Positions 13,667 to 38,165 of a DNA stretch of 54,054 bases are shown one piece after another (the stretch's first letter is position 1; every line of letters begins with the position of its first letter). A program made the translations under genes and the position numbers. This DNA is from a virus. Lineage: Duplodnaviria > Caudoviricetes. Below the pieces are notes generated by a model that was given only the letters and a program-made list of their open reading frames with translations, ran no database searches and was not told the DNA's origin. Location of the stretch: positions 1 through 54,054 of the IMG/VR virus record IMGVR_UViG_3300028091_000011; one strand, written 5' to 3'.

Positions 13667-13708
13667 GCAAGAACCCGATTGATGCGTGTTACCATCCGAA
13701 AAACCGCC

Positions 13709-14410: not shown

Positions 14411-14535
14411 TCCTTGCGTCTATCGAATCGTTCCTTGGCGGAATCTGGTTTGCAGCCCTTGTCGGCGTGGCTTGCTACATCGCTGGAAGCGTGTTCCCGA
14501 TCAGCAGCCTGCTGTCGAAGTTCACCAAGAAGTGA
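14407..14535 (+). CDS. 42-aa membrane protein (holin-like)
   Basis: ATGA overlap, a hydrophobic core and a basic KFTKK tail. Confidence 0.55.
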   Translation: MILASIESFLGGIWFAALVGVACYIAGSVFPISSLLSKFTKK

Positions 14536-14581
14536 TCTGGTGTTCGCGCTGCCAGCCGACAGTCGGCATGGAGACCCAAGG

Positions 14582-14905
14582 ATGGAGATTTTCACGCCTG
14601 CAACTGTCGCCCTGTGGGGGACGCTTGGAACGACGATGACTTCGCTTGGTGTTGTTCTGGCGGACAAGTCGCAAAAGGTTCTGGCGGAAAGCACCTTCAC
14701 GGAGACGACCCTTGTCCCTGTCGGCATGATGCTGGCAGGGATTGCTGTGACAGCGGCTTTGGTCTGGAAGGTCGCCAACCAGAAGCACACCGTCGAACTC
14801 AACATGAAGGACTTGGAGAATCGGATCAGACGCTTGGAGGATGAGTTGAAGAGCGTCGAGACCGAGTTGGACGACAAGCAGGACAAGCAACATCACCGAA
14901 AGTGA
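14582..14905 (+). CDS. Membrane protein with C-terminal coiled coil (holin/antiholin-like)
   Basis: Hydrophobic segments are followed by the heptad stretch LENRIRRLEDELKSV. Confidence 0.55.
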   Translation: MEIFTPATVALWGTLGTTMTSLGVVLADKSQKVLAESTFTETTLVPVGMMLAGIAVTAALVWKVANQKHTVELNMKDLENRIRRLEDELKSVETELDDKQDKQHHRK

Positions 14906-14975
14906 CGATTGGTCTGCATGGTCGTGGGGCGATTGCCCGCCGTGTATTACAGTACGCGGGTAAGCAGGAGCATCT

Positions 14976-15392
14976 ATGCCAAAGAACACCCCATCCATCG
15001 TCCTGTCGCGTACAGACTCCGCCGTGCAAATCCTGTTTGGGGGCTTCGACACCTCCATCGACCCAGTTCTCGTTGAGCGACGAGCCGTTGGTGGATCGTC
15101 TTGGACGGTGGTTGCTACTCCATCGGACGGGGATGGCGAGGTCTTGGACGACTCCATCATCGACGGCGTGAACTACGAGTATCGCGCGACCGCAGGAGGG
15201 CAGAGCGCGATGGCGGCTACCGCCACCGAGCAGGAGCCGAAGCGGAAGCGCAAGGAGAAGCAGGCGGATGCGGTCGAACAGGCGATTGTTCCAGTCATGC
15301 AGCCCGTGATCTTTGACCCGTGGGGTCTGCTGGCTGACATCTCCGAGTACGACCCGCAGGCTGTGTTCATGGTTCCAAAGAATGACAAGTAG
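14976..15392 (+). CDS. Fibronectin type III-like protein
   Basis: VERR....W..V.....D.....G..YEYR..A pattern. AGGAG RBS. Confidence 0.6.
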   Translation: MPKNTPSIVLSRTDSAVQILFGGFDTSIDPVLVERRAVGGSSWTVVATPSDGDGEVLDDSIIDGVNYEYRATAGGQSAMAATATEQEPKRKRKEKQADAVEQAIVPVMQPVIFDPWGLLADISEYDPQAVFMVPKNDK

Positions 15393-17784: not shown

Positions 17785-17786
17785 GG

Positions 17787-20700
17787 ATGGCAGGGATGCT
17801 CGACCAAATCACAGAACTCAAGTCCGCAGAAGTTATCGACACACCAGAAGGTGTCGAGCGGTTCCTTGCCGAACTCAAGAACGCGGTAAGCGAAAACGGA
17901 GACACCTCCGTAATGCAGACCGCTGACGGTCGTCTTTGCGTCACGAAGCAGAACCCCGCTACCGCGATGTCTGATCCGATGAGTGCGCCCTCGCGTGAGC
18001 GCATTCAGCAGATGGTCGCGGAGCGGGGAATGCCTTGGGACGAGAAGTACGCCGAGCGCGTCATTCCGTGGTGGGCTTCGGATGAGCGCGTTGACCGTCA
18101 GGGCGACATCGTTCTCCAGAACTGGAAGTTCGATGACTACCAGAACAACCCCTTGATGCTGTACGCGCATCGGTGGGACGATCCGCCGATTGGCACGGTT
18201 CTGAACTGGGAGGTCATGCCGCGAACGAGCCGCGCCTACAACGGTCGAAGCCTTCGCCTGATGCCCCTGTTCGCGACCAAGGATCAGTACGAGTGGGCTG
18301 ACACGATCTTCCGACTCGCCAAGGCGCGGTTCCTGCGGACTGGCTCCGTTGGGTTCTATTCGGACAACATCATTCAGGTTCGCGACCCCAACGAGCGGAT
18401 GCGTATGGGGCTTGGCAACATGGGCGTGATCTACGACAGAAACAACCTGATTGAGTGGACGGTGGCTCCCGTGCCTGCAAATCAGGGTGCGCTCCAGAGC
18501 CTTTCGCTCGTGGCACGCAAGGGTCTGCTGAAGGGCGACGACCTCCCTGTCGTCACGGACATCTTCAAGTCGTCCGTGAAGCGCGGGGTTGGAGACGCGG
18601 AGAAGATTCGCGACATTGAGAAGGCGGTCGGAAACTACTGGAACCGCCTCTTCCCAGCGACCAAAACGGTGTCAACCGTTGACACGAAGGCACTCCCGCA
18701 GTCGTACCGAGAGGCTGACGGCTCCCAGCGGTGCGAGAACTGCGCCTCCTACGAGCCTGACTCGACCGATGAGAAGATGGGCGTGTGCAGGCAGTACAGC
18801 GCAACTTGCCGAGCCAACATGACTTGCAACTCGTGGAAGGCGAAGATGCCTGTTGAGATTACGAAGGAAGGCGTTGCTGTTGCTGTTCCAGCACCCGCTG
18901 TCGCTCCAGTTGTATCTATGCCTGTTGCTGACTCTGGAAGTGGCATTACTGGTACTACTTCTGGAGGTCGCACAACTGGCGGAGCGTCAAGTCCAGTTGA
19001 CAATCAGCGTCCCGAGGCTGTTCCGCAGCGATGGGACGATGCGATGGACTTCATCAAGTCGCGCTACGAGGATCATCAGGCGGCTGTCGGAAACGATCCG
19101 CGCAAGCAAACCACGGAAGGCAAGTTGCAACAGGTGTTCGCGCGTGGCGTGAATGCTTGGGACGATGCCAACGAGGAGCAGCGCGGAGGTCTGACTGGCG
19201 AGGACTGGGGCTACGCGCGGGTGGAGTCGTTCCTGAACGCGCTGCAAAGCCTGCGCTTTGAGGGCGAACCTCACGATCAGGACTTGCTGCCTGCCGAGCA
19301 TCCCAAGTCCGAGCGCGAGAAGGTGAACAAGGCGGTTGTTGGTTACATCAACCGTGGCATGAACCGATTCATCAAGGGCGACTTCGTTTCGTGGCGGACG
19401 AAGGGCGGCATGGCTGTCGGTCAGATTGAGCAGATCGACATGAAGGGCATGGTTGCCACCGACAGCGAGGAGATGGAGGCGATGCCTGAAGACCCTGTGG
19501 CGACGATCAACCCGATTGTCGAGCAGGAAGGCAAGAAGATGGGCTGTGGCAAGCCGCGCCTGATGCCGTTCTCGCGCATCAAGATGGCTCCCAATCAGTT
19601 CCCCGAGCCGTCCAACTGGCGTTGCATGGATTCGCAGCGCAAGCGGATCGGTGACATGGTGATGTCGCACAACAAGGAGGTTGGCAATGATCCCATTCGT
19701 CTCGCATCCGCTGGCACGGCTGTTCATGTCTTTGAAAGAGGCATGGGGTCGTATCTGGAAGATCGCCGTGGCATCTCCGATGCAGGCTCCGCCGAGCAGT
19801 ACGCCGAAGCGCGTCTCGCGTCCTACCTCGACGCGCTCCGCAGGGGCGGCTTCCAAGGAGACTCGCACGACGAAGACCTCCTCCCACAAGACATTGCGGG
19901 ATCGCGCAGGGCGCAAGCCATCAAGGTGATGGTCGCGCGTGCGGCGGCATACGAAGGCATCGACTTCGTGCCGCCCGAGGGCGCACGCACCGAGGCGCAG
20001 CGCGGTCTTGACTGGAGGCGCGAGTACGGGCGTGGCGGCACGGAGATCGGTGTCGCCCGCGCACGCGACATTGCCAATGGCAAGAACCTGTCTCCCGAGA
20101 CTGTTCGCCGCATGAACTCGTACTTCGCACGCCACGAGGTGGACAAGAAGGGCGAGGGATTCAACCCAGACGAGAGCGGCTATCCGTCAGCGGGTCGAAT
20201 CGCGTGGGCGTTGTGGGGTGGTGATGCGGCGATGGGGTGGGCTGCAAAGGTGATGCGCCAGATGGAGGCGCGTCAGACCAAGATGTTTGAGCCGATTGGC
20301 GTTGTCGGCGGGCTTCGCGGTCGCATGAACGAGGCTTCAGACCGTTATCAGGAGATTTACCGTTGGGTCAAGACCGCCGATCCCGAGATGGTCAAGAAGG
20401 CTGTCGATGGCATCGGAGTGCGGACGGATGTCGATTACTCGACGCTCTGGCAGGACGAGCCGAAGGCGAAGTTCGTGTCCAGCGTGCTGCTGGCTGCGGA
20501 GATCGGAGGCGATCCTCGCGATCCCAACGAGACGCTCAAGTTCGTTCGGGGCTGCGTGTCCAAGGCGATTCGCCACCGAGCGGTCGAGCAGATCACGAAG
20601 GCTGCTGCAAAGAGAACTTCGGAGTTGGACTCGCTTGCGTCCGCGCTCAAGGAGTTCGATGAATCGAAGATCGACCGTGATGAGAACGGTCGGTTCAGCG

Positions 20701-21500
20701 GCGGCGGAGGCGGCGCATCAGATTCATCGTCCGATTCCAAGCAAGGCGCAGGCGAAGCGGCGAAGTTAGCGTCGATGGTCGAGGAGGCAAAGCAAGGGGT
20801 CTGGGCTTCTGGAAAGGATGATCGCGAGGCAAGCGAGTTGATCGCTGACGATCAGGAAACGATGACGGGTTTCATAGACAGGATCGACACGGAACTTGAC
20901 GATGAGAGGGAGGCTCTTGAAGCCCGAATCTCCGACTACGGAGGAGACGACGAGGCTGGTCTTCGGGAATCTTTGAAGGACGAGTTCGATTCGATTGCCG
21001 ATCAGCGTTCTTTCGTTGACGCAATCAGAAACAGAAACGATCAGATTGGAAGCGCGATCAGGCAGTACGACGAGGAAACACGCTTCGCCATTGGTGAGGC
21101 TCGTAACACCTTGAAGTCGGCAAGGTTTGCAAAGACGGCTGAAGAGTTCAGGGAGCGTGTCGCTGGCGCGGCAGGAAAACTCGTCTCTTCGCTTGATGCA
21201 GCAGACAAGAATGGCGGAGCCGCGCTGGATAGCCTTGTTCGACAGGCTCAATACGAGGCGGATCGCGACAAGAGGACGGGCGCAGGAGGCGACAAGATGC
21301 CCAAGGAAAGGCGCAGCGCGGCGGAAGCGTCTCGTTCTAGTGGAATCTCTGCTGGAAGGATTGCTCGGGTGAGGGTGGAGGTTCTTCGTCAGACATTGCT
21401 GCGCGGTCTTCGGTCTCCGCTTTACAGCGAGAGTCGGCATAGGGACGCAAGCGATGTCATTGCAAGAACCAGAAACCAGCGCGGCATTGGTGAAGACTGA
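17787..21500 (+). CDS. HK97-type prohead protease with long multidomain C-terminal extension
   Basis: ASDERVDRQGD, NPLMLYAH, GSVGF and E...PVPAN in the N-terminal part, followed by ~1000 aa of accessory modules. Confidence 0.85.
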   Translation: MAGMLDQITELKSAEVIDTPEGVERFLAELKNAVSENGDTSVMQTADGRLCVTKQNPATAMSDPMSAPSRERIQQMVAERGMPWDEKYAERVIPWWASDERVDRQGDIVLQNWKFDDYQNNPLMLYAHRWDDPPIGTVLNWEVMPRTSRAYNGRSLRLMPLFATKDQYEWADTIFRLAKARFLRTGSVGFYSDNIIQVRDPNERMRMGLGNMGVIYDRNNLIEWTVAPVPANQGALQSLSLVARKGLLKGDDLPVVTDIFKSSVKRGVGDAEKIRDIEKAVGNYWNRLFPATKTVSTVDTKALPQSYREADGSQRCENCASYEPDSTDEKMGVCRQYSATCRANMTCNSWKAKMPVEITKEGVAVAVPAPAVAPVVSMPVADSGSGITGTTSGGRTTGGASSPVDNQRPEAVPQRWDDAMDFIKSRYEDHQAAVGNDPRKQTTEGKLQQVFARGVNAWDDANEEQRGGLTGEDWGYARVESFLNALQSLRFEGEPHDQDLLPAEHPKSEREKVNKAVVGYINRGMNRFIKGDFVSWRTKGGMAVGQIEQIDMKGMVATDSEEMEAMPEDPVATINPIVEQEGKKMGCGKPRLMPFSRIKMAPNQFPEPSNWRCMDSQRKRIGDMVMSHNKEVGNDPIRLASAGTAVHVFERGMGSYLEDRRGISDAGSAEQYAEARLASYLDALRRGGFQGDSHDEDLLPQDIAGSRRAQAIKVMVARAAAYEGIDFVPPEGARTEAQRGLDWRREYGRGGTEIGVARARDIANGKNLSPETVRRMNSYFARHEVDKKGEGFNPDESGYPSAGRIAWALWGGDAAMGWAAKVMRQMEARQTKMFEPIGVVGGLRGRMNEASDRYQEIYRWVKTADPEMVKKAVDGIGVRTDVDYSTLWQDEPKAKFVSSVLLAAEIGGDPRDPNETLKFVRGCVSKAIRHRAVEQITKAAAKRTSELDSLASALKEFDESKIDRDENGRFSGGGGGASDSSSDSKQGAGEAAKLASMVEEAKQGVWASGKDDREASELIADDQETMTGFIDRIDTELDDEREALEARISDYGGDDEAGLRESLKDEFDSIADQRSFVDAIRNRNDQIGSAIRQYDEETRFAIGEARNTLKSARFAKTAEEFRERVAGAAGKLVSSLDAADKNGGAALDSLVRQAQYEADRDKRTGAGGDKMPKERRSAAEASRSSGISAGRIARVRVEVLRQTLLRGLRSPLYSESRHRDASDVIARTRNQRGIGED

Positions 21501-21503
21501 CAG

Positions 21504-22229
21504 ATGCAATGGGTTGATGGTCTTGTCCTGACAAGGCGAAACTGCGGCACGGGTGCGGGTGGATTTCAACCCGGGAACTCTTGCGGCGGCGGTTCTGGCT
21601 CTGGCGAATCAACCAGCCTCTCTCGCCTCATTGCAGCCCCAGACGAATCCCAGAAGGAGGCAATGCGGAACCTTGAGGGTGTCATCAGCCCCAAAGACCC
21701 GCTTGCCGCCACTATGCTTCGCCAGATCGCGGCGGACATCCCGTCCGAGCATTACGGCGGTCTGTCAACGATCAGTTCTGGTTCGCAGGGCGTTGACATG
21801 GTTACAAACATTCGCGTCTCCAGCGGCTCCGATGTCGTCCGTGTCCTTGGGTACTACCGTCCGTCAACTGCGGAGATTGTCCTATCAGGAGGCGACAACA
21901 TCGCGACCATCGGCGGTGGGACGCTGCACCACGAGATCGGTCATCATGTCCACGAGCGAAGGCTGACTTCGGAGGCTGACGCGGAGTGGCGAGGCATCTC
22001 CGACAACGGGCGAAACGCCTCCATCTCTGCCTATGCCCGAACTTCCCGTGGTGAGCATTTTGCCGAGGCGTATCGTGCCTACGCCAAGGGCGGCAACGAC
22101 AGGGCGCGACTGCGCCGTGTGGAGCCTCGCGCCTACCAGTTCATGGCAAAGGTGTTCCGCAAGGGGTCGAAGATGCTCAATCCAGACGGTCGTCTTGGTG
22201 GAATCGACACGACAAGGTGGGGCGACTGA
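21504..22229 (+). CDS. Lethal-factor-like (ATLF-type) zinc metallopeptidase with N-terminal CGTGAGGFQPGNSC motif
   Basis: HHEIGH...ISAYA..S..EHFAEAY. Confidence 0.75.
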   Translation: MQWVDGLVLTRRNCGTGAGGFQPGNSCGGGSGSGESTSLSRLIAAPDESQKEAMRNLEGVISPKDPLAATMLRQIAADIPSEHYGGLSTISSGSQGVDMVTNIRVSSGSDVVRVLGYYRPSTAEIVLSGGDNIATIGGGTLHHEIGHHVHERRLTSEADAEWRGISDNGRNASISAYARTSRGEHFAEAYRAYAKGGNDRARLRRVEPRAYQFMAKVFRKGSKMLNPDGRLGGIDTTRWGD

Positions 22230-25139: not shown

Positions 25140-25177
25140 ACAGGGGCGCAGGGCTTCGGCTCTGCGCCCCTGTCTTT
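25140..25177 (+). terminator. Intrinsic terminator
   Basis: 15-bp stem with a cTTCGg loop, followed by CTTTGTT. Confidence 0.85.
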
Positions 25178-26409: not shown

Positions 26410-27049
26410 AGCGGAACTGACGGTCAATGCGGATCAGGTTCGCATCCAGATCGACAGGCTGCTGAAGCGCATATCGGTCGAGGCTGTTCGTGCGGCTGTT
26501 GGTGCTGCATTCCAGCGAGGGGCTACGAAGGTCGGCGGCTTCATCGCGAAGAAGTTCCTGTCTGGTCAGGTTCTTCGGAGGAGGACTGGCAACCTCGCAC
26601 GCTCGGTCGAGGGAATCTTTGAGGTGTCTGATGGTCTGCCTCGTATTCGCGTGGGGGTCTTCAAGTCCCCAGCCAGAAACTATGCACGCATCCACGAGTT
26701 TGGAGGGACGATCACGCCCAAGAAGGCGAAGTCTCTTGCCGTACCCGTGGGTGCTGGGGCGGTTACTCCCGCTGGAGTGCCGAAGTACGCCAGTCCCCGC
26801 CAGTACCCGGGAGAGTTGCAATACATCCCCATCAACCGTGGCAATGTTGCAGCCATCCTCGTTGACCCCAAGGAGAAGCGCAAGGCTGAAGGAGAGCGCA
26901 TGAAGGCGACCTACCTCCTGCTGCGCCGCGTGCGTGTCAAGGCGCGTCCGTTCCTCCGACCCGGGGTAATGGCGTATCTGCCCGAACTCACGGAAGAGGT
27001 GTCCCGTGCCGTCAGAAAGGTTGTGAATACAGATGTCAGCGGTAACTAG
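26402..27049 (+). CDS. Neck/tail completion protein (HK97 gp10-like)
   Basis: RTGNLARS, YARIHEFGG.I and ARPFLRP. Confidence 0.8.
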   Translation: MAKAELTVNADQVRIQIDRLLKRISVEAVRAAVGAAFQRGATKVGGFIAKKFLSGQVLRRRTGNLARSVEGIFEVSDGLPRIRVGVFKSPARNYARIHEFGGTITPKKAKSLAVPVGAGAVTPAGVPKYASPRQYPGELQYIPINRGNVAAILVDPKEKRKAEGERMKATYLLLRRVRVKARPFLRPGVMAYLPELTEEVSRAVRKVVNTDVSGN

Positions 27050-27485
27050 CCAGCGCACCCGCGTCCTCGCCCAGATCATCGACCTGTGCAAGCAGGCTGG
27101 CGGTGGTCGCTACTTTGTGAGACGCGGCGCGGTGAACTGGGCGGAGTTCGACTTCAACCGATACTCGGCTGGCATCTCAATCCTCACCCCAGAGTTCACG
27201 CTTCTGGGCGTTCAACTGAACAGTATCACAGTCACGCTGGAACTTGTGCAACGCATTCCAGACGGAGAGCGTCTGTATCTTGAAACTGATGGGCTAAATG
27301 ACGAGGAAATCGAAGGACTTGTCGAGGATGCCCGTATCATTCTTCTTGGCTTGAAGGCGGCGAAGGACGACAGCGGAGATGCGACTGTTCTGCGAATCGT
27401 GGACAATCGCATTGAAGGTCAGGAAATGTCCAATCTCGACTTCAGCATTCAGGGCGTTATGGTCACCTTCACCGTAGAATACTGA
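27033..27485 (+). CDS. Putative tail terminator
   Basis: Size, position before the tail tube genes and C-terminal FTVEY. Confidence 0.6.
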   Translation: MSAVTSQRTRVLAQIIDLCKQAGGGRYFVRRGAVNWAEFDFNRYSAGISILTPEFTLLGVQLNSITVTLELVQRIPDGERLYLETDGLNDEEIEGLVEDARIILLGLKAAKDDSGDATVLRIVDNRIEGQEMSNLDFSIQGVMVTFTVEY

Positions 27486-27509
27486 TCGCACCAACAGAGG
27501 AGCGAACAC

Positions 27510-28343
27510 ATGGCAGGCATCGTTGGAACTCAAGACCTGTGGGTCGTCGGATCGCGGTTTTTCTTCAAGCCCGAAAGCACGATCTCTGATCGCATCATCG
27601 ACATTGGCACGATCAACACGGTGAATCCCGCGATTGAGCCGACCAAGGTCGATCTTCGCGACTCTGGCTCGGGCTTCTCCAAGATCATCGACTCGACCCT
27701 CACGGATGTCTCGGAGTCGTTTGAGGTCACCACGAAGAACTTCAGCCGCGACAACCTGTCGTACCTCTTCGTGTCCGCGACCCCGAAGGAACTCACCGAA
27801 GAAGCGGACACGGCTGTCCAGATGCTCCTGTCGAATGTGGCTGCAACGGCTTACCCCGTGAACACGCTCGTCAAGGTCTACAACAACACGGGAACGGGAA
27901 ACACGGGTCAGCCCGTCTACAACATCAACGCCAACCCGACGAACGCCGTGTCTGGCTTCGCCTCTGGCGCGATCTCCTTCGTCGTGCATGACGCTGCGCG
28001 TGGCATCCTGCGGGTCGCTACAAACAGCCTGTCGGGAACGGGCAGCATCACGATCACGCTTGCTACGACCGATCCCGAACCTGTGGCGAACAACCGCCGC
28101 GTGCTGACCCCGCAGATGGGTTCGCTCTCGCGCCTGACTGGTCGCGGCTACATCTACTACTCGCGCAACAACTTTGAGTACCAGACCGTTCGCGAGTTCA
28201 AGTGCCAGATCACCCCGTCGAACGCGAACTTCCAAGTCGAGGACTACTCGGACTTCACGCTGACGGCGAAGGCTCTGTATGAGCCGACCAACACCACCGC
28301 GCCGTTCGGTCGTCTCGTCGCATTCGCTGGCTCCATCGTCTGA
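27510..28343 (+). CDS. Tail tube (major tail) protein, paralog A
   Basis: Lies between the terminator and the chaperone/TMP, starts MAGIVG.QDLWVVGSR and has strong codon bias. Confidence 0.75.
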   Translation: MAGIVGTQDLWVVGSRFFFKPESTISDRIIDIGTINTVNPAIEPTKVDLRDSGSGFSKIIDSTLTDVSESFEVTTKNFSRDNLSYLFVSATPKELTEEADTAVQMLLSNVAATAYPVNTLVKVYNNTGTGNTGQPVYNINANPTNAVSGFASGAISFVVHDAARGILRVATNSLSGTGSITITLATTDPEPVANNRRVLTPQMGSLSRLTGRGYIYYSRNNFEYQTVREFKCQITPSNANFQVEDYSDFTLTAKALYEPTNTTAPFGRLVAFAGSIV

Positions 28344-28361
28344 TAGAAAGAGGACACCACA

Positions 28362-29309
28362 ATGGCAGGACTCGTTGGCAATCAAGACCTCTGGATCGTT
28401 GGCTCCCGCTTCTACTTTGAGCAGGGAACTCGCGGCTCTGGCAAGATGATCGACCTCGGAACCGTGGATGTCATCTCGCCGCAGTTGACGACCAACATCG
28501 CTGAACTGAAGGACGGCGACAAGGGCATCCTGCGCCTCCTCGACCAGTCAATCACCCAGATTGATGAGGTCTACAACATCACCATCAAGAACTTCAACCT
28601 GACCAACCTGAACACGCTGTTCCTCGGCGGCGGTTGGACGGGAAGCAGCACGGCTGTCACGGGCAGCAACACCGCGTTCGACACGCTGAAGTTGAGCCTT
28701 GAGGACATCAACAACATCGGCGGCACGATCAACACGGGACAGTCGATTACTGGCGCGGGTGGTCTCTACCTGTTCCAGTTGACTGCAAGTGGTGAGCCTG
28801 TCCGAAACTTCGTTGGTACTGGCGGAACGCTGACCATCGGCGGCATCACGCAAGTCGAGAACACCAACTGGAAGTGGTACGACAAGAGCCGTGGCATCAT
28901 CCAGATTCTCACGCTTGCCGACTCGGGTGGCGGTGACGGCGTGACCGAATACAGCCCCGACATCACCTTCTCGGGCAACCGCGCTACTGGGTTCTCCAGC
29001 GGCAGCACCATCGACCTGATCTACACCCCCAGCAGCGCAGCCTACGGGTTCAGCGCGGGTCGCATCATGTACCCGCAGACCGCCACCCTGTCGTCGCTGT
29101 CGGGAACGGGTCATGTCTACTGGACGCGAAACAACGGCGAGTACATGACCGCCCGTTCGTTCCCATGCCAGATTCAGCCCGCTGGTGCAGCCCTCTCCGC
29201 AGACGATTACTCGTCGTGGACTCTGGCTGTCACCGTTCTCGCGAACAGCACCGTGGCTGGCGAAGAGGCTGGTCGCATGGTGTACGCGACTGGTACTGGC
29301 GAAATCTGA
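28362..29309 (+). CDS. Tail tube protein, paralog B
   Basis: MAGLVG.QD.WIVGSRFYFE...DDYSSWTL. Confidence 0.75.
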   Translation: MAGLVGNQDLWIVGSRFYFEQGTRGSGKMIDLGTVDVISPQLTTNIAELKDGDKGILRLLDQSITQIDEVYNITIKNFNLTNLNTLFLGGGWTGSSTAVTGSNTAFDTLKLSLEDINNIGGTINTGQSITGAGGLYLFQLTASGEPVRNFVGTGGTLTIGGITQVENTNWKWYDKSRGIIQILTLADSGGGDGVTEYSPDITFSGNRATGFSSGSTIDLIYTPSSAAYGFSAGRIMYPQTATLSSLSGTGHVYWTRNNGEYMTARSFPCQIQPAGAALSADDYSSWTLAVTVLANSTVAGEEAGRMVYATGTGEI

Positions 29310-29327
29310 CCCTGACAGGAGGATGGC

Positions 29328-30143
29328 ATGGCAGGCATCGTCGGTTCCCAAGACCTCTGGGTCGTTGGATCAAGGGCTTACTTTCAGCGCGAGGGCGCGG
29401 CGAGTCTCGTGGAGATCGGAACGATCAACACGGTCAGCCCCGCCGTCGAGCCAGTCAAGATCGACCTCCGCGAGTACGAGACGGGTCTCGGCAAGTTGTT
29501 CGACTCGACGCTGACGGAGTTCACGGAGACCTACGAGGTCACCACCAAGAACTTCTTCCGCGACAACATCGCCAACCTGTTCCTGTCGTCTGCACCTGTG
29601 ACGCGATCCAATCCGTCAGAGAGCGTAAACGCAAATCAGGCGATCTTCAGTTTCACCTTCGACAGCAGCCGTCACGCGGCTGGTTCGTTGTTCTTGGCGG
29701 TAGACAACGGCGGAACATCACCGACCAATCAGGTTTGCTACAACATCACGAACATCGCCGCAAGCGGTGCGCTGTCTGCTCAAGTCGAGGTCGCTGACGC
29801 GACTCGCGGTCTCATTCGCCTATTGGGTGTTAGCGGTCTTACGGAGGCGCAGACATACTCCATCACGGTCAACCTTGATGCCCCAATCGGAAACAACCGT
29901 CAGGTCATTCGACCGCAGACGGCTACGCTTTCGCGGGTCACGGGCGAGATGCTGGTGTACTTTGAGCGCAACAACGGCGAGTACCAGTCCTGCCGTAACT
30001 TCAAGTGCATCATCCAGCCGTCGAACGCGAACTTCCAGATTGAGGACTACTCGGAGTTCACCTTCACCGCGAAGGCTCTCTACGAGCCGTCCAAGGCGGC
30101 GAAGTTCGGCAAGTTCATCACCTACCGTGGCAGCGTGATCTAA
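29328..30143 (+). CDS. Tail tube protein, paralog A'
   Basis: Shares PSNANFQ.EDYS.FT.TAKALYEP with paralog A. Confidence 0.75.
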   Translation: MAGIVGSQDLWVVGSRAYFQREGAASLVEIGTINTVSPAVEPVKIDLREYETGLGKLFDSTLTEFTETYEVTTKNFFRDNIANLFLSSAPVTRSNPSESVNANQAIFSFTFDSSRHAAGSLFLAVDNGGTSPTNQVCYNITNIAASGALSAQVEVADATRGLIRLLGVSGLTEAQTYSITVNLDAPIGNNRQVIRPQTATLSRVTGEMLVYFERNNGEYQSCRNFKCIIQPSNANFQIEDYSEFTFTAKALYEPSKAAKFGKFITYRGSVI

Positions 30144-30155
30144 AGGGAGCAAGTC

Positions 30156-31247
30156 ATGGCAGGACTCGTTGGCTCACAGGACTACTGGATCGTTGGCTCT
30201 CGGTTCTACTTTGAGCCGAATCTCTCTGGCACGACCACGCGCAGCGGCGAGATGATCGACCTTGGCACGGTTGACACCATCAGCCCGCAGATCGCGACCA
30301 ACATCGCGGAACTCAAGGACGCGGAGAGCGGTGTCATTCGCCTTGTGGATCAGGGACTCGTGAGCATTGACGAGACCTACTCCATCACGGTCAAGAACTT
30401 CAACTTCCGCAACCTCCAGATTCTCTTCGCTGGCAAGCCGCAGGCGGAGACGCAGGCGGCGAACATCACTCCTGCATCCATCACGCTGTCGAGCGAGGAA
30501 CTTTCGCGAACTCCGTCAGGCAACTCTGGTTCGATCATCAAGCCGACTGGCGGCTACCTCCTCGTCCAGTTGCGGGATAGCAACGGCAATCCTCTCCGCA
30601 ACTTCACCACGAGCAGCACCCTGACTGCAACAGCCAACATCGGTATTGGTGGTGCTTCTGCTGGGCTGACCAAGGACACTCATTGGACTTGGTGGGATGC
30701 GCCGAAGGGCATCATTCGCATCATCAACCTTCCTGCTGGTAGCGGTGGATATGCGGGCATGACGGTCACGGGCGGAGTCATCACCGCCTATCCGACCGCT
30801 GGGTTCACGATCACCTTCTCGGCGGCGACTGGTCTTGGCTACTCGGGCAACCGCGTGATCTACCCGCAGTCTGCAACGCTGTCCGACCTGACTGGCAACG
30901 CGCACATCTACTGGACGCGCAACAACGGGCAGGATGTCTCCGCCCGCACCTTCGCGTGCCAGATTCAGCCTGCTGGTAGTTCGCTGACCACCGACGACTA
31001 TTCGTCGTGGACGCTGACCGTGACTGCCCTCGCCACGGGATCGTCCACGGAGATCGCTGGTCGCTACACCAACATCAAGTGGAACAACACCACCACGGGC
31101 GACAATCTTGGTCTGCTGCCTAACGGCAACCCCGCGTACAACGAGAACTATGACGGCGCGGGTGGCGGTACGACAGGAACCAACTGGGACAAGAACCCGA
31201 ACGACTTTGATGTCGGCGGAACGCTTGGTGGCGGCAAGGCTGTCTAA
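30156..31247 (+). CDS. Tail tube protein, paralog B' with C-terminal extension
   Basis: Shares YWTRNNG...CQIQPAG...DDYSSWTL with paralog B. Confidence 0.75.
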   Translation: MAGLVGSQDYWIVGSRFYFEPNLSGTTTRSGEMIDLGTVDTISPQIATNIAELKDAESGVIRLVDQGLVSIDETYSITVKNFNFRNLQILFAGKPQAETQAANITPASITLSSEELSRTPSGNSGSIIKPTGGYLLVQLRDSNGNPLRNFTTSSTLTATANIGIGGASAGLTKDTHWTWWDAPKGIIRIINLPAGSGGYAGMTVTGGVITAYPTAGFTITFSAATGLGYSGNRVIYPQSATLSDLTGNAHIYWTRNNGQDVSARTFACQIQPAGSSLTTDDYSSWTLTVTALATGSSTEIAGRYTNIKWNNTTTGDNLGLLPNGNPAYNENYDGAGGGTTGTNWDKNPNDFDVGGTLGGGKAV

Positions 31248-31292
31248 AGAAGCGACAAGTATCACACTTCTCACGCAGCGTGATACAATCAG

Positions 31293-31331
31293 ACCCGTGG
31301 TGGCGCACCCGCTCCCACGGGTTCTTCTTTT
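31293..31331 (+). terminator. Intrinsic terminator after the tail tube array
   Basis: ACCCGTGG...CCACGGGT-TCTTCTTTT. Confidence 0.75.
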
Positions 31332-31340
31332 GGAGAGAAA

Positions 31341-31820
31341 ATGCCTCAAGCGCGAGATGAACTTGCCGAACTGTTCCCGGGCAAGACGATTGAGATCAAG
31401 GGCAACGGCAGGACGATCAGGGTCACCGTCTACCCGATGGCGATCAAGCACTTCCGCACCTTCAAGGATTCCGTCACCAAGGCGATGGACAAGATCGGGA
31501 AGGCTCCCGCTGGAGGAGACTGGTCGAGCGTCATCATGCCCATGATCGTCCAGATTGCAGCCGATGATCTTCTGGACATCGTGAATGAGTGCGTCGAGGG
31601 CATCGACCTCAAGCACGACCGATGCCCCAACTGGGTCTACCCCATCGTCGTCAAGGAGTGGGTCATCGAATCATTCGGGTCGGAGGACAAAATCCGCCCT
31701 TGGGTGAGCCTTCTGGAAGAACTGGCAGAGAGGGTGGGCGGTCAGAAGGTCAACATTTGGCAGACGCTTACGCAACGCTCATCCTCTGCGGCTGGAGCAA
31801 GCCAGACATCGACAGACTGA
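31341..31820 (+). CDS. Tail assembly chaperone (gpG-like)
   Basis: Size and position between the tube genes and the TMP. Confidence 0.7.
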   Translation: MPQARDELAELFPGKTIEIKGNGRTIRVTVYPMAIKHFRTFKDSVTKAMDKIGKAPAGGDWSSVIMPMIVQIAADDLLDIVNECVEGIDLKHDRCPNWVYPIVVKEWVIESFGSEDKIRPWVSLLEELAERVGGQKVNIWQTLTQRSSSAAGASQTSTD

Positions 31821-31981
31821 CGCTCAAGCAGTTCAATCTGTTCTCCGAACGCGCAGTTCTCGCAGTAAGACGCTTCCAAGCCTCGCAAGGAGAGATAATC
31901 AGGGTCGGAACGGCATCCCTGCTATCCAAGGAAGGGCAGCAGGCTTACAAGCGGCTGAATCAGGAGATACAGCGTGGCTGA
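31757..31981 (+). CDS. Tail assembly chaperone C-terminal part (gpT-like), -1 frame
   Basis: LADAYATLILCGWSKPDIDRLTLKQF overlaps gpG in the -1 frame and ends over the TMP start. Confidence 0.6.
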   Translation: MADAYATLILCGWSKPDIDRLTLKQFNLFSERAVLAVRRFQASQGEIIRVGTASLLSKEGQQAYKRLNQEIQRG

Positions 31982-34900
31982 AGGCTCTGACATCTCAATC
32001 GACATTGTTCTGAAGGAACAGGTCAAGCCTGCACTTGACGCGCTGTCGAGCGGGATTGCGGAGTTCACGAAGACGCTTTCGATCCTGACGGCGCAGGCGA
32101 AGTCCGCTGGCGATCTGATCGGCAAGGTCGGCACGCAGGCGGAGCAGGCTGGGCAGAAGGTCGCTGCCGCCACCAAGCCAACGGAGCAGTTGAAGACCAC
32201 GCTGACGGCGGAGGCGAAGGCTGCGAAGGAAGCGGCTGATGCCACCTCTCGGTTCGGTACGGCGGTTGACAAGGACTCGCCGCGCATCAGGTCGAACGCG
32301 AGGGAGATTGAGGCTCTCGTCAGTTCGTACAGCCGATTCAGGCAGGGCATCACGAATGCCGCCACGACATTGCAGAATCAGGTTCGCGGCTTGCGCGGGG
32401 CGAAGGAGGCGTTTGCCGACCTACGGTCTGGAGTCAACGACACCGTTGGTGCGCTGACCTCGTTCAAGGCTCTCGCTATCGCGGCTGTGGCAACGCTTGG
32501 CGTGTTCAAGGCGAAGTCGTTCATCGAAGGCATCGTCGGTGACGCGGCGAAACTGGACGAGACGCTCCGCAAGGCGGCTGCTGCCGTTGGTGCGCTCAAC
32601 GAGACCACCACGGAGAGGCTCCGTGAAGACCTAAAGCGGCTCTCCATTGAGGAGGGCGCGGACATCCGTGCGCTTGCGGAGGCGGCTGTCGGGGTCATTC
32701 CAGATGTGGGCGAGAAGGGAATCGCGGAGTTCCTGAAGGTCGCCCAGAGGTTCAGCGAGGTCGCTGGCGGCAATGTCGCGCAGATCGCGGACACGCTGGT
32801 ATTCATCATCAAGGGCTTCGGAGACGAGGCTGACAACTCGTCCAAGAGCATGGCGGAACTCGCTTCCACCATCTCGGACAAGTTGTTCGTGGCTGCACGA
32901 GAGGGCAACATCGCCATCGGGCAGTTGACGGGCATTGTCGGACTGGCGGCGCAGCAGGCGGAGGTGCTTGGCATCTCCTTCGATGAACTTCTGGCGGCTT
33001 TCACCGCGCTGGGCGATGTGGGCGTGAAGCCCATGCGTGCGTTCCGCGTGCTGTCTGGCGTGCTTGCTGGGGTACAGGAACCGTCCGTCAAGGTCGTGGA
33101 GGCTGTCGAGCGAGTCAACAGGGCTATCCCGACCCTGAACCTCGACTTCTCTCGGACTGGTCTTGCAGCGGACGGTCTTGCCAAGTTCCTCGGCAAGTTG
33201 ACCATCGCGCTCAAGGCGGACGAAGACCTCGCCAAAGACTTGGGCATCAACATCCGCGAGATGGGTCTGATCTTCAAGGCGACCGCCAACGAAGGCAAGG
33301 CTCTTGCGGATCAGTTGGAGAACATCCAGAACAGCGGCGGCGAGGTCAACCGTGCGGCGGACTTCATTCTGGAAGGCACGGAAGGCAAGTTGCGCCGCAT
33401 CAGCGCGGTGTTCGCGGCACTCAAGGACGACATCGCACAGGTCTTCATCCCTGCCATTGACGACTTCCTTGAGAACTTCAAGAACGGCATCGAAGGGTTC
33501 AGGAACTCGTTCGGCGGGTCGCTGTCTGCAATCAGGCAGGCGGTGAGCGAAGTTCAGCAGTCTAACCTGACCACGGATCAGAAGAAGGTCGCGCTAGCGA
33601 CCCTTGGCGACCTACAGCGCGAGGTGAACAGGGCTGGTCTGACGGTGCTTGTCGAGGCGTTGAAGGTCGCGTTCATCGCTGGCGGAAAGATTCTTGCAGA
33701 CCTGATCTTCGCCGCGTTTGCCAAGGGCGGTCTCGTCCTCAAGAACACCATCTTGGAGGCACTTGGAAAAGAAACAGCAGGGACGCGGGCTGCTCGTCTT
33801 GAGGCAACTCAATCCGTTATTCAGCGAGTCATTCCGCGCGGAGGCGTGATTCCAGAGGCGGTTCCAAACGAGTCGCAGGCTAGCGATATTGCCATAGCGA
33901 TCTCGCAAACGCTTGCGAACGCACAGGCACTATCTCGTCGCCAGCCGATACCAGCAGACGCAAGCACCCGAACGGATACCGACAATCGGATTCTGGGCTT
34001 TGCGAAGGATATTTCCGATGCCGTCAAGGAATCTGTTGGGCGATTGCCAGAGGAGGTTCGTGCGGCTCTTGGGGCAAGCGGAGCCATCGACCCCCTCACG
34101 AACGAAGTCAAGAACCTACGGCAGATCGCGTCAGAGCAGCCCGAGTTGTTCAGGGAGATTGTTGCAGCCGTCCTTCGCGGTCAGTCTGAACTTGTCAGGC
34201 AGAACAACGACACCGACATCAACAGGCGGATCGACTTCGTTCGCAGGACGGATCGCCCCGCACTTCTGGCTGAACAAACACGGTTGCGTGAGCAGAGGGA
34301 TCAGCAGGCGAATGACGGGGCTGGCGTTGGTTCGCGCAGGAATCTGGTAACAGACGCGGCGATCCAGCAGGCGGAGTTCCAAGTCGAGTCATCGTTGTTC
34401 ATCGACAACATCCGCAGCCTGAATGTGGCGTTGCGAGGTGGGTTCGGCGCGGGTGGCGGTGGCTTCGGAAGCGCAGAGTTTTACAATCAGACGGTTGGCG
34501 GTCTTGCTGGTACTGGAATCCCGACTAGGCAGTTGCCAGCGACTTTCCGCGAGGGGAATCAATCGGAGCAGGGCGTTGCTCTCGACATTCTTCAGAGATT
34601 CTCCGCCCAAGGCAATCGGTTCCCGCAACTCACCGCTGCACGCTCGTTGATTGAACAGGCTGGCATTGGCGGCTTGAGCCGTCTGGACTTTGAACAGCAA
34701 CTCCGCGAGGCGCAGGCAGAGCGTGACGCGGAAGAAGCCGTGATCCGCGAGTTCATCGACAGCGCGATTTCCCGTGCTGGGGAAACGGCGCAGGGCTTTT
34801 CGCGGGTGGTCGGTGAACTTGGCAAGGCGCAGACAGCCGATGATTTGCGAAAGGTTCTGGAGAACCTTGGCGCGGACGCTGGCGACTTCGCCCCGCTTGT

Positions 34901-37900
34901 GCAGGCGTTCATTGACATCCGATCTGAAGGCGATGATGTCGTCAAGTCGCTTGAGGAGATGGGCAAGTCGCTTGGCTTTGTCGCGACCAAGGGCGATGAC
35001 GGTCTGATCTCGCTAGTCAGGACGACCGACGAGGCTGGCAAGGCTGTTGCGGATACTCAATCGAACATTCAGGATGCGGCATCTGCGGCGATTGACGGAC
35101 TGACTGACACGGCGGAAAAGGTCGGCACGCTCCAGCAGCGCATAGCGGAGCAGGCTGGAGACTCCGCGCTGACGCTGGCGAAGCGGTTCGCGCAGGCAGA
35201 GGTGGAGCGCAGGAAGGCTATTGGTTCGGTCACCGAGGATCGAATCGCCGCCGAAATCCAAGCCGCCATCAAGGTTGCAGACGACCTCAAGAGCCAGATC
35301 GCCGCAGTTCAAGAACAGAAGACCGCTCGTGTTATTGGAGAGAAGGAAGCGGTCGAGCAGACTCGTCAACTGCGTCAACGGTTGACAGAGCAGGCACAGA
35401 TCATCTTCAAGTTTGTCCCAGATGCGAGTGCGATCTTCAAGTCCGTCGAGGACATCGGCAAGCGCATTGATGAACTCCGCGCACGCGCGTCTGCGATCAA
35501 GTTTCAACAGTCGATCCTGCCGCCGATTGCGTCACCGCAGCAGGATGCACTTCGTGTCGAGGCTAGTGATGTTGGGGCGCAACTTCAAGAGGCTGCAAAG
35601 GACTACGCGAACGCGCTGGTCACCCTTATCCGCGCCAACGACAAGGCTACGCAGGAGGAGACGGTCAATGTCTTCCGCGCTGCGGTAGACAAGAGCGCGG
35701 ACGGAGCGGAGAAACTGATTGTCGAGGTCGCCAAGCGTGCCGCGAAGTTGTATCAGGAGTCGTTGCGGACGCTGTTCAAGGACGAGGCTGGCGCGAAGCA
35801 GAGTGAAGCCATCGTCGCGGAACTCGACCGCCTTGTTTCAGCGAAGACTGATGCCACGGCGAAGGGGCTGGTGACGGAGGTCGATCAACTCAACAAGGAC
35901 ATTGCTGGCAAGATCGCGACATTGCTTGGGACGCTACAGGGCGATGTTCCTGCCGAGTTGAAGACCGCCTACGAAACGATTGTCGCGCGGTTGCGGGACA
36001 TCCAGACCGCGACAGGCGACAAGGCAAAGAGCATCATTGAGCAGTCTGGTCAGGAGATTTCTGACCTCATCAAAGTGCTGTTTGCCACGAGCGACAATCT
36101 GGCAAAGGAGTTGGCGGCTGCACAGGAGAACTTCCGAAAGAGCGAGGAAGAGTTCAAGCGCGGCAGGGAGTCGCGGTCGCAGACGGTGCGGGTTGGAGAG
36201 GTCGTCTCGCAGAGGTTGGCTGTAGGACCGGTTATCCCCGCTGGCAACCAGTCCCTCATCGACCAGAGCGCGGGAGGGATCACGGCGGCATTTGAGGCAT
36301 CGCAGCAGGCTGGTCGCGAGATCGACTTCCTGATCGACAAGATCAAGACCCTTGAGAGTCAGTTGGATGCGGTGCGTTCGCTTCAGGTCGGAGCCGAAGA
36401 CGAGCCGAAGCGTCAGGCACTCATTGCCCAGATCAACGGCATCATCTCTGGAACCGAAGTTCTCCTTCAGACCAAGTTGCAGAACGCTGGAGTGCCGTTC
36501 GTCGGAGATGACGACATCACTCGTGCTGATGCTCTGGTCAAGGCGCAGTTGGAGTTGCTCCGTGTCGAGGAACAGCGCGTTCCCGTGCTTGAACTCGTCA
36601 GGCAGGCGACCGAGGCGCAAGTGAAGGCGCAGGAGAAACTCGCCAACTCGCAGAAACTCGCCGCTGCCGCTGGTACGAATCAGTACGCGACCCTTGAGGC
36701 GGTCTACGGTGTTGCCACCTTCCAGATCGACAAGACGCGCGGCAGCATTGAGCAGCAGAGGCAGGCTCTACAGGCGTACATTGCGGAACTGGAGTCGATC
36801 CGCGTCCGCTTGCAGGACGCTCTCTCCCTGAATCCAGACCTTGCTGGCGATCTTCAGCCAGCCATTGACGAGGCGAAGCAGAAGATTGACGATGCACAGG
36901 TCGATCTGGACGCTCTTGGTCGCAAGTGGGGCGGCGCGTTCGGTGAGGGATTCAAGCAGGGTCTTGGTGCGGTCGAGACTGCCGACGAGTTCTTGGCGAA
37001 CCTTGGACGAGGTGCTGGTCAGGCTCTCCAGAGCAACCTTGGGACTGCAATCGACAGCGTGATCGACGGCACGAAGTCGCTTGGGGAGGCATTCAAGGAG
37101 TTTGTTGCCAGCACGCTGATCGACATCGGCAAACTCATCATCAAGATGCTCATTCTTCAGGCGATCCAGTCCGCGCTTGGCGGGCTTGGTCTCTTCAACG
37201 ATGGCGGTGTCGTCCCAGAGCCAGTCGAGTTGAACCGTGGAGGCATGGTTCCAGACTTGCGCCAGCCCCGCCGATGGAACGGATACAACACGGGTGGATC
37301 GGTCAGCAACGACGATCCGAAGCAGCCGAGTCGTGGAATCATGTCGAGGATCAGGGCGGCTGTGGCGCGAATCAAGCCCACGCCCTCTCCAGAGCCGCAG
37401 CCTGTGTTCGTCCGCGCCTACGCGGAGGGCGGATTCGTCGGTGCTGACCCGCTTACCAAGGCGATCCACACCATCGTCAATGTCCTTTCCCCGAGTCAAG
37501 AGGAGCCGCGTTTCTACGACACGGGCGGCTTCGTCGCTAGGAACGCGGAAGACACGCCGAGGATCGACAGGGTAATCAATACGATCAGCAGGGTGTTTGA
37601 GCCGCAGGATGTGCAGGCACTCAACACGGGCGGACGGGTGGAGAAGAGCGGTGTCGGAAAGGCGTTGAGGGCGATTGCTTCTGTGCTTCAGCCGCAGGAG
37701 CCAGAGGTGCTGGCTCTGGCTGGTGGAGGTGTCGCGTATCTGGCGGTGGGAGGATTCCCAGCGAATGCGCCTCGTCGCAAGGGCAGAGTACCCGGTCCTG
37801 ATGTGAATCGCGATGTGGTTCCCGCGATGCTCACCCCGGGTGAGTTCGTGATGAAGCGTTCGGCTGTGAGCAACTACGGTCTGGGCGTGATGTACGCCAT

Positions 37901-38165
37901 GAACGAAGGTCTTGTGCCGAAGGATATGTTCGGTAGCCTACCCGGGGTTCGGAAACTAGCCACGGGCGGTACGGCAGAGGCGACCATCCCACCAAAGATC
38001 GAAGTCACTACTCCGATGCAGCCGCCTCCCCAGATGCCGCAGCAGTCTGGTTCGCAAGCCCCAGTTCCCGCCTACATCGTTGCCAACGAGCAGGCGATGC
38101 AAAACCTACTCAACGGCGGCAGGAACGCCATGATCGACTTCATGCGTCGAAACAAGAACACATGA
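31974..38165 (+). CDS. Tail tape measure protein (2063 aa)
   Basis: Long Ala-rich helical protein with a TP901-like core and C-terminal D.VPAMLTPGEFVM. Confidence 0.93.
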   Translation: MAEGSDISIDIVLKEQVKPALDALSSGIAEFTKTLSILTAQAKSAGDLIGKVGTQAEQAGQKVAAATKPTEQLKTTLTAEAKAAKEAADATSRFGTAVDKDSPRIRSNAREIEALVSSYSRFRQGITNAATTLQNQVRGLRGAKEAFADLRSGVNDTVGALTSFKALAIAAVATLGVFKAKSFIEGIVGDAAKLDETLRKAAAAVGALNETTTERLREDLKRLSIEEGADIRALAEAAVGVIPDVGEKGIAEFLKVAQRFSEVAGGNVAQIADTLVFIIKGFGDEADNSSKSMAELASTISDKLFVAAREGNIAIGQLTGIVGLAAQQAEVLGISFDELLAAFTALGDVGVKPMRAFRVLSGVLAGVQEPSVKVVEAVERVNRAIPTLNLDFSRTGLAADGLAKFLGKLTIALKADEDLAKDLGINIREMGLIFKATANEGKALADQLENIQNSGGEVNRAADFILEGTEGKLRRISAVFAALKDDIAQVFIPAIDDFLENFKNGIEGFRNSFGGSLSAIRQAVSEVQQSNLTTDQKKVALATLGDLQREVNRAGLTVLVEALKVAFIAGGKILADLIFAAFAKGGLVLKNTILEALGKETAGTRAARLEATQSVIQRVIPRGGVIPEAVPNESQASDIAIAISQTLANAQALSRRQPIPADASTRTDTDNRILGFAKDISDAVKESVGRLPEEVRAALGASGAIDPLTNEVKNLRQIASEQPELFREIVAAVLRGQSELVRQNNDTDINRRIDFVRRTDRPALLAEQTRLREQRDQQANDGAGVGSRRNLVTDAAIQQAEFQVESSLFIDNIRSLNVALRGGFGAGGGGFGSAEFYNQTVGGLAGTGIPTRQLPATFREGNQSEQGVALDILQRFSAQGNRFPQLTAARSLIEQAGIGGLSRLDFEQQLREAQAERDAEEAVIREFIDSAISRAGETAQGFSRVVGELGKAQTADDLRKVLENLGADAGDFAPLVQAFIDIRSEGDDVVKSLEEMGKSLGFVATKGDDGLISLVRTTDEAGKAVADTQSNIQDAASAAIDGLTDTAEKVGTLQQRIAEQAGDSALTLAKRFAQAEVERRKAIGSVTEDRIAAEIQAAIKVADDLKSQIAAVQEQKTARVIGEKEAVEQTRQLRQRLTEQAQIIFKFVPDASAIFKSVEDIGKRIDELRARASAIKFQQSILPPIASPQQDALRVEASDVGAQLQEAAKDYANALVTLIRANDKATQEETVNVFRAAVDKSADGAEKLIVEVAKRAAKLYQESLRTLFKDEAGAKQSEAIVAELDRLVSAKTDATAKGLVTEVDQLNKDIAGKIATLLGTLQGDVPAELKTAYETIVARLRDIQTATGDKAKSIIEQSGQEISDLIKVLFATSDNLAKELAAAQENFRKSEEEFKRGRESRSQTVRVGEVVSQRLAVGPVIPAGNQSLIDQSAGGITAAFEASQQAGREIDFLIDKIKTLESQLDAVRSLQVGAEDEPKRQALIAQINGIISGTEVLLQTKLQNAGVPFVGDDDITRADALVKAQLELLRVEEQRVPVLELVRQATEAQVKAQEKLANSQKLAAAAGTNQYATLEAVYGVATFQIDKTRGSIEQQRQALQAYIAELESIRVRLQDALSLNPDLAGDLQPAIDEAKQKIDDAQVDLDALGRKWGGAFGEGFKQGLGAVETADEFLANLGRGAGQALQSNLGTAIDSVIDGTKSLGEAFKEFVASTLIDIGKLIIKMLILQAIQSALGGLGLFNDGGVVPEPVELNRGGMVPDLRQPRRWNGYNTGGSVSNDDPKQPSRGIMSRIRAAVARIKPTPSPEPQPVFVRAYAEGGFVGADPLTKAIHTIVNVLSPSQEEPRFYDTGGFVARNAEDTPRIDRVINTISRVFEPQDVQALNTGGRVEKSGVGKALRAIASVLQPQEPEVLALAGGGVAYLAVGGFPANAPRRKGRVPGPDVNRDVVPAMLTPGEFVMKRSAVSNYGLGVMYAMNEGLVPKDMFGSLPGVRKLATGGTAEATIPPKIEVTTPMQPPPQMPQQSGSQAPVPAYIVANEQAMQNLLNGGRNAMIDFMRRNKNT

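Follow-up and report, generated by a model that had tools for sequence, protein, structure and literature searches.

Four tandem tail tube paralogs in A-B-A'-B' order in a tailed phage genome, possible subunits of one mixed tail tube

The usual view of long non-contractile phage tails is that a single tube protein polymerises to form them, and their assembly, flexibility and DNA-ejection signalling are modelled on this basis. The tail tubes of YSD1 (PMC7385642) and JBD30 are described as rings of one protein. In YSD1, domain 2 is an immunoglobulin (Ig)-like sandwich inserted in the tube domain, which wraps adjacent subunits and girds the tube; the 6xgr model holds domains 1 and 2 (PMC7385642). 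[quoted passage not shown] In cluster DJ, both genes are present in all 56 phages, the products are 43% identical and one of them has 51 additional residues at its C-terminus; horizontal acquisition is the origin proposed by the authors (PMC12859696). In type VI secretion of Bacteroides, the adjacent paralogous tube genes for Hcp2 and Hcp3 encode an obligate mixed ring with a hypervariable surface, as shown by structure (PMC13035841). The tube of phage T5 pb6 is built of trimeric rings with quasi-sixfold symmetry. Here we describe four diverged tube genes, A, B, A' and B', at positions 27510-31247 of an uncultured virus of the Caudoviricetes (Duplodnaviria; IMG/VR record IMGVR_UViG_3300028091_000011). 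All coordinates refer to the window, which comprises this entire record (54,054 bases; linear, with a completeness rating of 100%). We infer, as a moderately probable reading, that all four products co-assemble into one heteropolymeric tail tube. The first-pass annotation of this DNA had started from the view that siphovirus tubes are normally homopolymers of one gene product; this is right as a rule, but the two-gene actinophage clusters have been published.

The four genes are open reading frames (ORFs) on the plus strand, each with an ATG start: A (27510-28343, 277 amino acids (aa)), B (28362-29309, 315 aa), A' (29328-30143, 271 aa) and B' (30156-31247, 363 aa, extended at the C-terminus). 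Neighbouring genes are separated by 18, 18 and 12 nucleotides (nt). A purine-rich Shine-Dalgarno-like stretch (GAGGAG, AGAGGA, AGGAGGA and AGGGAG, respectively) ends 4-8 nt upstream of each start, so that the description of four intact genes, each with its own ribosome-binding site, was confirmed. The alignment gives A an identity of 51% with A', 33% with B and 36% with B'; B and B' are 47% identical. The common N-terminus and the class-specific motifs pointed out at first reading are seen among the 54 invariant columns of the four-protein alignment. Short DNA identities in the flanks had also been reported. The 20-mer CCGTCGAACGCGAACTTCCA indeed occurs in exactly two copies, at 28215 and 30018, and two matches were found in 0 of 100 shuffles. 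In addition, longer similarity in register was observed between the DNA of A and A' (73-79% over 181 and 129 nt) and between that of B and B' (71% over 182 nt). The starts of all four genes are 67-77% alike over 73 nt.

All four proteins matched phrog_807 ('major tail protein with Ig-like domain'), with E values of 8.7e-7 for A, 1.2e-7 for B, 4e-6 for A' and 2.6e-11 for B'; the match of B covers residues 22-305. The family profile is matched once, end to end, by each ORF (profile positions 1 to 283-286). A Pfam scan of the four proteins gave no match in a copy of Pfam without PF27730.1, which is the precomputed label on many of the homologs. The fold was tested on models of A and B', and B and A' were related to them by their 47% identity to B' and 51% identity to A, respectively. 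The model of A, with a predicted local distance difference test score (pLDDT) of 67.9, had the YSD1 major tail protein (6xgr_A) as its top fold match (E = 3.7e-10). The model of B' (113 sequences) had a pLDDT of 83.0 and a predicted template modelling score (pTM) of 0.70. In Foldseek it matched 6xgr_A with an E value of 1e-13 and a TMt of 0.71. Its structural alignment to 6xgr_A had a Z score of 16.0 and a root-mean-square deviation (rmsd) of 3.3 over 252 of 275 residues, and that to the JBD30 major tail protein (8rk3_q) a Z score of 15.2 and an rmsd of 4.1 over 241 of 252 residues. The sequence identity of B' to the YSD1 and JBD30 tube proteins is 14-16%, and a sequence profile search of the PDB found nothing significant (sole match, E = 0.19). 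The tube fold assigned in the first-pass annotation is therefore present in both modelled paralogs. Judged from these models, all four genes encode true major tail proteins (tube proteins) built on the plan of YSD1 and JBD30, with a tube beta-sandwich, a long hairpin and an inserted Ig-like domain.

In the alignments, the insert sits between conserved N and C parts in all four proteins, and the divergent central part corresponds in position to the inserted domain 2 of YSD1. By alignment boundaries, the central domain lies at 27783-28109 in A (residues ~92-200), 28635-29075 in B (residues ~92-238), 29601-29909 in A' (residues ~92-194) and 30441-30869 in B' (residues ~96-238), all on the plus strand. 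The extra tail of B' noted earlier is real. This C-terminal extension (31080-31244, plus strand; residues 309-363) is rich in Gly, Asn and Thr and predicted to be disordered, with pLDDT below 50 at residues 309-321 and 325-363. It is nonetheless present in 18 of 19 aligned rows of the B' class, in most of which short motifs such as PAYNEN are conserved; one row stops early. Since the motifs persist despite the low complexity, the tail looks more like a peptide for binding than like a spacer.

Several observations show that the array was not produced by faulty assembly. The same four genes stand in the same order in L006, an independent record from a metagenome, where the protein identities are 98% for A, 95% for B, 90% for A' and 94% for B'. 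On three short contigs (L007, L008 and L010), A-B-A' or a portion of it can be followed as far as the contig ends. Of the 24 listed public runs, labelled riverine metagenome, 20 contain 89% or more of the words sampled from 27000-32000, and one of them may be the source. In two other runs, single contigs span 27113-31187 and 27369-31315, with 8 and 10 letters different. L006, the public runs and the spanning contigs together rule out an artefact or a collapsed repeat. One further contig, L009, is 99.5% identical to the window and has a 1-bp deletion (within L009:600-1558, at about 28708 of the window) that splits B into two overlapping frames.

The history of the four genes was analyzed with two trees, a quick one of 131 rows (all full-length rows of P0001-P0110 and the locus proteins) and a careful one of 46 chosen rows, rooted on the single-copy group. 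In the careful tree, the multi-copy proteins form one clade (98/98), within which the A-type proteins (100/99) and the B-type proteins (100/100) make up separate clades. Each of A (100/98), A' (100/100), B (95/90) and B' (100/99) forms a single clade. The classes A, A', B and B' have 14-19 ortholog rows each. Because the rooted tree is ((A,A'),(B,B')) and the gene order is A-B-A'-B', the data fit the duplication of one A-B pair as the simplest history, as had been proposed from the class motifs. The stems are longer for the second pair (0.72 for A' against about 0.24 for A; 0.44 for B' against about 0.21 for B). Further A-like or B-like lineages are P0063, P0058/P0071, P0020/P0021, P0018/P0019 and P0016, whose longest contigs measure 1.4 to 63.6 kb.

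The cores of all four genes are under purifying selection. The ratio of nonsynonymous to synonymous divergence (dN/dS) of the cores was 0.04-0.21 in 11 of 11 gene-by-locus comparisons. Against orthologs, the core values were 0.08-0.16 for A, 0.04-0.13 for B and 0.10-0.17 for A'. The central domains gave 0.20-1.04. These values bear on the possibility that some of the copies are no tube subunits, being either an outer layer or side appendages docked on a tube that another copy makes, or decaying duplicates. The disordered, motif-bearing tail of B' could bind something, as such a copy might. The core dN/dS values, however, exclude decay. None of the four proteins has lost the N-terminal arm, the region of the long hairpin or any of the tube core, and the profile of the family spans each ORF in one end-to-end match. 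We therefore regard copies outside the tube as very unlikely.

Divergence had been said to be strong in the central parts, and both ortholog identity and a divergence profile bear this out. The identity of A to its orthologs is 0.65 in the central domain and 0.90 in the cores. In a profile of 100-nt steps against the nearly identical L006, one peak lies inside each gene over a background of 0-3%: at 27801-27900 in A, at 28701-29000 in B, at 29601-29900 in A' (10-29% mismatch) and at 30401-30800 in B' (7-20% mismatch). The synonymous divergence (dS) between the window and L006 was 0.034 in the central domain and 0.033 in the core of A, 0.12 and 0.041 in B, 0.51 and 0.026 in A', and 0.30 and 0.039 in B'. 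The central value is thus far higher than the core value in three of the four genes, by up to about 20-fold. Since dS itself is raised in these three central domains, they appear to have been replaced by divergent alleles and not shaped by selection only. Shuffling by recombination, as the first-pass annotation had it, therefore stands for the exchange of divergent alleles within one class. It does not stand for exchange between paralogs: an all-versus-all BLAST with the central parts of 75 clade proteins gave 0 matches between A-type and B-type central domains at E<=1e-3. Within a type, the same BLAST matched A to A' at 25-41% identity and B to B' at 23-43%. Outside the array, other hot spots against L006 (14-44% mismatch) were observed at 18801-19000, in a gene of 1237 aa, at 33801-34800, in the middle of the tape measure gene, and at 38101-38300, at the start of a tail gene of 1160 aa.

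The conserved positions of the cores were then compared among the classes. Seventy core columns have a consensus of 90% or more in each class. The four classes agree in 33 of them, the N-terminal arm included, and 11 are fixed differently between A-type and B-type across all orthologs. None of the 70 separates A and B' from A' and B.

A lateral contact between the two types was examined by complex prediction. The prediction for A with B had a score of 0.69, and the best of three controls 0.00; among solved complexes, 116 of 157 attained that mark, and among mismatched pairs 2 of 215, a calibration that holds only roughly here, as our own alignments were used. The contact agreement between A+B runs was at least 96% and the partner pLDDT at least 80. 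In the predicted interface, the N-terminal arm, the loop 23-31 and the C-terminal tail of A face the core and the inserted domain of B. Among 18 B orthologs, the interface residues in the central domain of B were more conserved (0.87) than the rest of that domain (0.68; permutation p<1e-4). These facts support, at the level of models, a lateral A-B contact via the inserted domain of B. The inserted domain of YSD1, which girds the tube and contacts neighbours (PMC7385642), agrees with this predicted interface. The earlier idea that the central domains are surface displays would therefore hold in part. They are probably more than this, since domain 2 of YSD1 touches neighbours and the inserted domain makes up much of the predicted A-B interface.

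A stricter order of the subunits could also be imagined. A-type and B-type subunits would alternate in each ring, giving threefold symmetry with quasi-sixfold symmetry, and A/B and A'/B' would make two kinds of rings patterned along a tail whose tape measure doubled in the same lineage, with the inserted domains serving as keys for the neighbours. We consider such an ordered hetero-oligomer unlikely.

The transcription of the array was inspected in public runs. A weak terminator-like hairpin (31307-31322) with a T-rich tail was found just after B' by a consensus scan (31307-31332, plus strand), and a terminator-like site of any strength was absent from within the four-gene block. Sigma-70-like promoters were uninformative, with 3 found against 3.0 expected. 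Six metatranscriptome runs contained 89-91% of the sampled words of 27000-32000. In run X15, one contig over the array had a word depth of 100.4, and its neighbouring contigs 16.4 and 22; in run X16, the corresponding values were 37.6 for the contig over the array and 3-3.5 and 13.5 for its neighbours. The depth of a DNA run was flat, at 14.6-16. Two RNA contigs start at 27105 and 27113. In two RNA runs, contigs stop at 31300 and 31315, and a DNA contig continues there, which is a weak hint of a transcript end. The contig of X15 ends at 31187, and this position was rejected as a transcript end since a DNA contig stops at the same place. These observations are hints that the array is expressed.

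It is worth noting that the paralogs might divide the tail between them by position. One or two of them would form the bulk tube, and the others special rings at the neck or tip, or a distal segment of a doubled tail. The tube fold is commonly reused for terminator, distal-tail and initiator rings, and neck, tip and baseplate entries were among the fold matches. A further and longer chain of the Chi neck entry, 8vhx_H (375 aa), matched as well as the Chi tube chain. The longer stems of A' and B' would fit a new role of the second pair, and the conserved C-terminal extension is found on B' alone. On the other hand, the ribosome-binding sites are similar and the genes form one block with no internal terminator-like site, and a protein needed in 6 copies is usually not placed or signalled like one needed in hundreds. 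All four genes show the same hot-spot pattern in the central domain. We therefore think a division by position doubtful.

Another interpretation is that each paralog can build a tube alone, so that the four would be alternative or redundant tubes, giving a mixture of virions with unlike surfaces, or protecting the phage against host defences or receptors directed at a single tube protein. It is known that some defence systems are triggered by tail tube proteins, and a major tail protein is reportedly sensed by toxin-antitoxin-chaperone systems. The exposed central domains diversify fast and recombine, as this would require, the interfaces and the N-terminal arm are conserved in all four so that homomers are plausible, and L009 may represent a natural variant with a broken B. 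However, neither loss nor copy-number change was seen among the six loci of the clade within the parts covered by contigs. The 11 columns that are fixed differently between A-type and B-type argue for two distinct conserved structural roles and against subunits that can stand in for one another. Moreover, genes in one block and one orientation offer no switch for expressing one at a time. Self-sufficient tubes of each paralog thus seem rather improbable.

Co-assembly of all four products into a single tube would account for these observations as follows. A single tube gene in one phage clade would have given rise to the A and B types, and the A-B pair would then have been duplicated. The four proteins would be made together from one block and would co-polymerise around a very long tape measure. 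The conserved N-terminal arm and core would keep the four subunits mutually compatible. The inserted domain would gird the tube on its outside and contribute to the contact between neighbours, and its exposed part would be a fast-evolving, recombining surface. The subunits may be arranged in mixed rings, in rings of alternating A and B, as was supposed at first reading, or as different ring types in succession down the tail. A hot spot in each central domain is expected if all four are exposed to selection.

Several points weigh against co-assembly. The evidence on the four proteins comes from their genes, from models and from RNA contigs. The confidence of the model of A is moderate (pLDDT 67.9). 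Only A with B was predicted as a complex; A-A or B-B could score likewise, so that the prediction does not favour a heteromer over homomers, and its high score may reflect a likeness to solved homomeric tube rings. None of the 70 core columns separates A and B from A' and B', and there is thus no signature of co-adapted pairs. The split of B in L009 may be an assembly error, or a natural variant in which B is dispensable. The comparison of copy number spans the one-gene and four-gene states only. Finally, the RNA evidence consists of contigs, a poor measure of expression, was obtained without a silent control stretch, and RNA libraries may hold DNA.

The array sits at the position of the major tail protein. 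The order of portal, long gene, capsid, neck genes, g27033, tube, chaperone and tape measure is common to the relatives, and the position of the tube gene is syntenic in L006, L008, L011, L017, L020, L023, L024 and L028. Directly upstream of the array, g27033 (27033-27485, plus strand) is a conserved gene of 150 aa. Its homolog directly precedes the tube gene in the same eight loci and in L025. No match to g27033 was found in Pfam or PHROG, and its position suggests a candidate tail terminator or completion protein. Downstream of the array, the ORF at 31341-31820 (plus strand) is a candidate tail assembly chaperone, with a weak match to phrog_1442 (E = 0.013), and a homolog of it follows the tube gene in all syntenic relatives.

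The tape measure gene (31974-38165, plus strand) encodes 2063 aa. Measured from stop to stop, the tape measure is 2063 aa long in the window and 2078 aa in L006. A single tube gene was found in eight distinct distant loci (L011, L017, L020, L023, L024, L027, L028 and L035; L029-L033 are the same records found again and are not counted separately), and all of these except L027 have a complete tape measure of 977-1037 aa. The termini of the window tape measure align with these shorter proteins, and the extra ~1000 aa are central. Internal duplication was rejected as the origin of the long form, since BLAST gave no self-match and no tandem repeat was seen. Tail length follows a rule of about 1.5 Å per tape-measure residue. 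By this rule, the predicted tail would be roughly 300 nm long in the four-copy clade and roughly 150 nm in the single-copy relatives. Tail length and the number of tube genes seem to have grown in the same lineage.

The family is small, with 210 cluster representatives (E<=1e-3) among 1.84 billion. Searches of viral contigs with a family alignment and with P0018, and of genome contigs with the alignment, found nothing. Among genomes, the sole match was to a contig of a SAR86 metagenome-assembled genome that carries a distant relative in one copy (29% identity), and this has little bearing on the host of the clade.

Other features of the window were noted in the head region. At 15313-21500, a portal fused to a Mu F-like domain (823 aa) is followed by the ORF of 1237 aa. 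The first ~290 residues of the latter are common to the relatives and residues 718-827 match phrog_2859; otherwise it matches no family. Between this long gene and the capsid gene, the ORF at 21504-22226 (241 aa) has a sub-threshold match to PF07737, of the zinc-metalloprotease type (25.1 bits; cut-off, 27.4), and may be a candidate head protease. The capsid gene and the next gene, of 155 aa, are followed by a strong terminator-like hairpin (25140-25173; 15 pairs, 11 of them G-C) and its T-rich tail. A large terminase subunit was not recognised among 48 ORFs compared with PHROGs and 41 compared with Pfam, where small ORFs were scanned in part and no six-frame search was made. The ORF at 13334-15392 was considered for this role and rejected, as its translation is unlike a large terminase subunit.

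Among known systems, the tube proteins of YSD1 (YSD1_22, 6xgr), Chi and JBD30 share the fold, the domain plan and the gene position with those of the window. YSD1 and JBD30 have one major tail protein, whereas the window has four diverged genes. In the literature searched, no paper on three or more tandem tube genes was found, and the words 'multiple major tail proteins' occur in one paper (PMC12191866). We thus found no published case of a four-gene tube array or of a heteropolymeric tube in such phages.

The two-gene actinophages resemble the window in having more than one related major-tail-protein gene per siphophage genome, throughout a group. The differences are also clear. In the actinophages there are two genes with at least one other gene between them, whereas in the window there are four, interleaved as A-B-A'-B'. 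Horizontal acquisition was suggested for cluster DJ, whereas the tree points to duplication in place for the window. When 50,697 deposited phage records were searched by tblastn with A and with B', nothing matched at E<=1e-3, and the origin of the array is therefore independent of the actinophage case. The array would thus stand beside the unexplained two-gene actinophages as a second, independent and more extreme case, and it can be tested without a host. It raises the questions of how the order of a mixed polymer is set, whether the doubled tail length is tied to subunit diversity, and whether one shaft can carry several fast-evolving surfaces together.

The Hcp2-Hcp3 pair is comparable in that adjacent paralogous tube genes are conserved together. 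Hcp chains were found among the fold matches of B' (Z = 7.8-9.0) and belong to the same group of tube-protein folds, and a heteromeric ring of the products described here would work in the manner of that pair. That system, however, is contractile, and its variable surface is luminal and binds cargo, whereas the variable part in the window lies outside the tube core. T5 pb6 provides a precedent that a siphophage ring need not consist of six identical chains. In pb6, two tube domains are said to be fused in one chain, and the ORFs of the window are unlike this double-domain type, with one tube domain each in 271-363 aa. No siphophage tail with a multi-subunit repeat was found described in the literature searched. 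The ordered hetero-oligomer considered above would, if true, be such a tail, and its ring of alternating A-type and B-type subunits would correspond to T5 pb6 without the fusion and, in a phage, to Hcp2-Hcp3.

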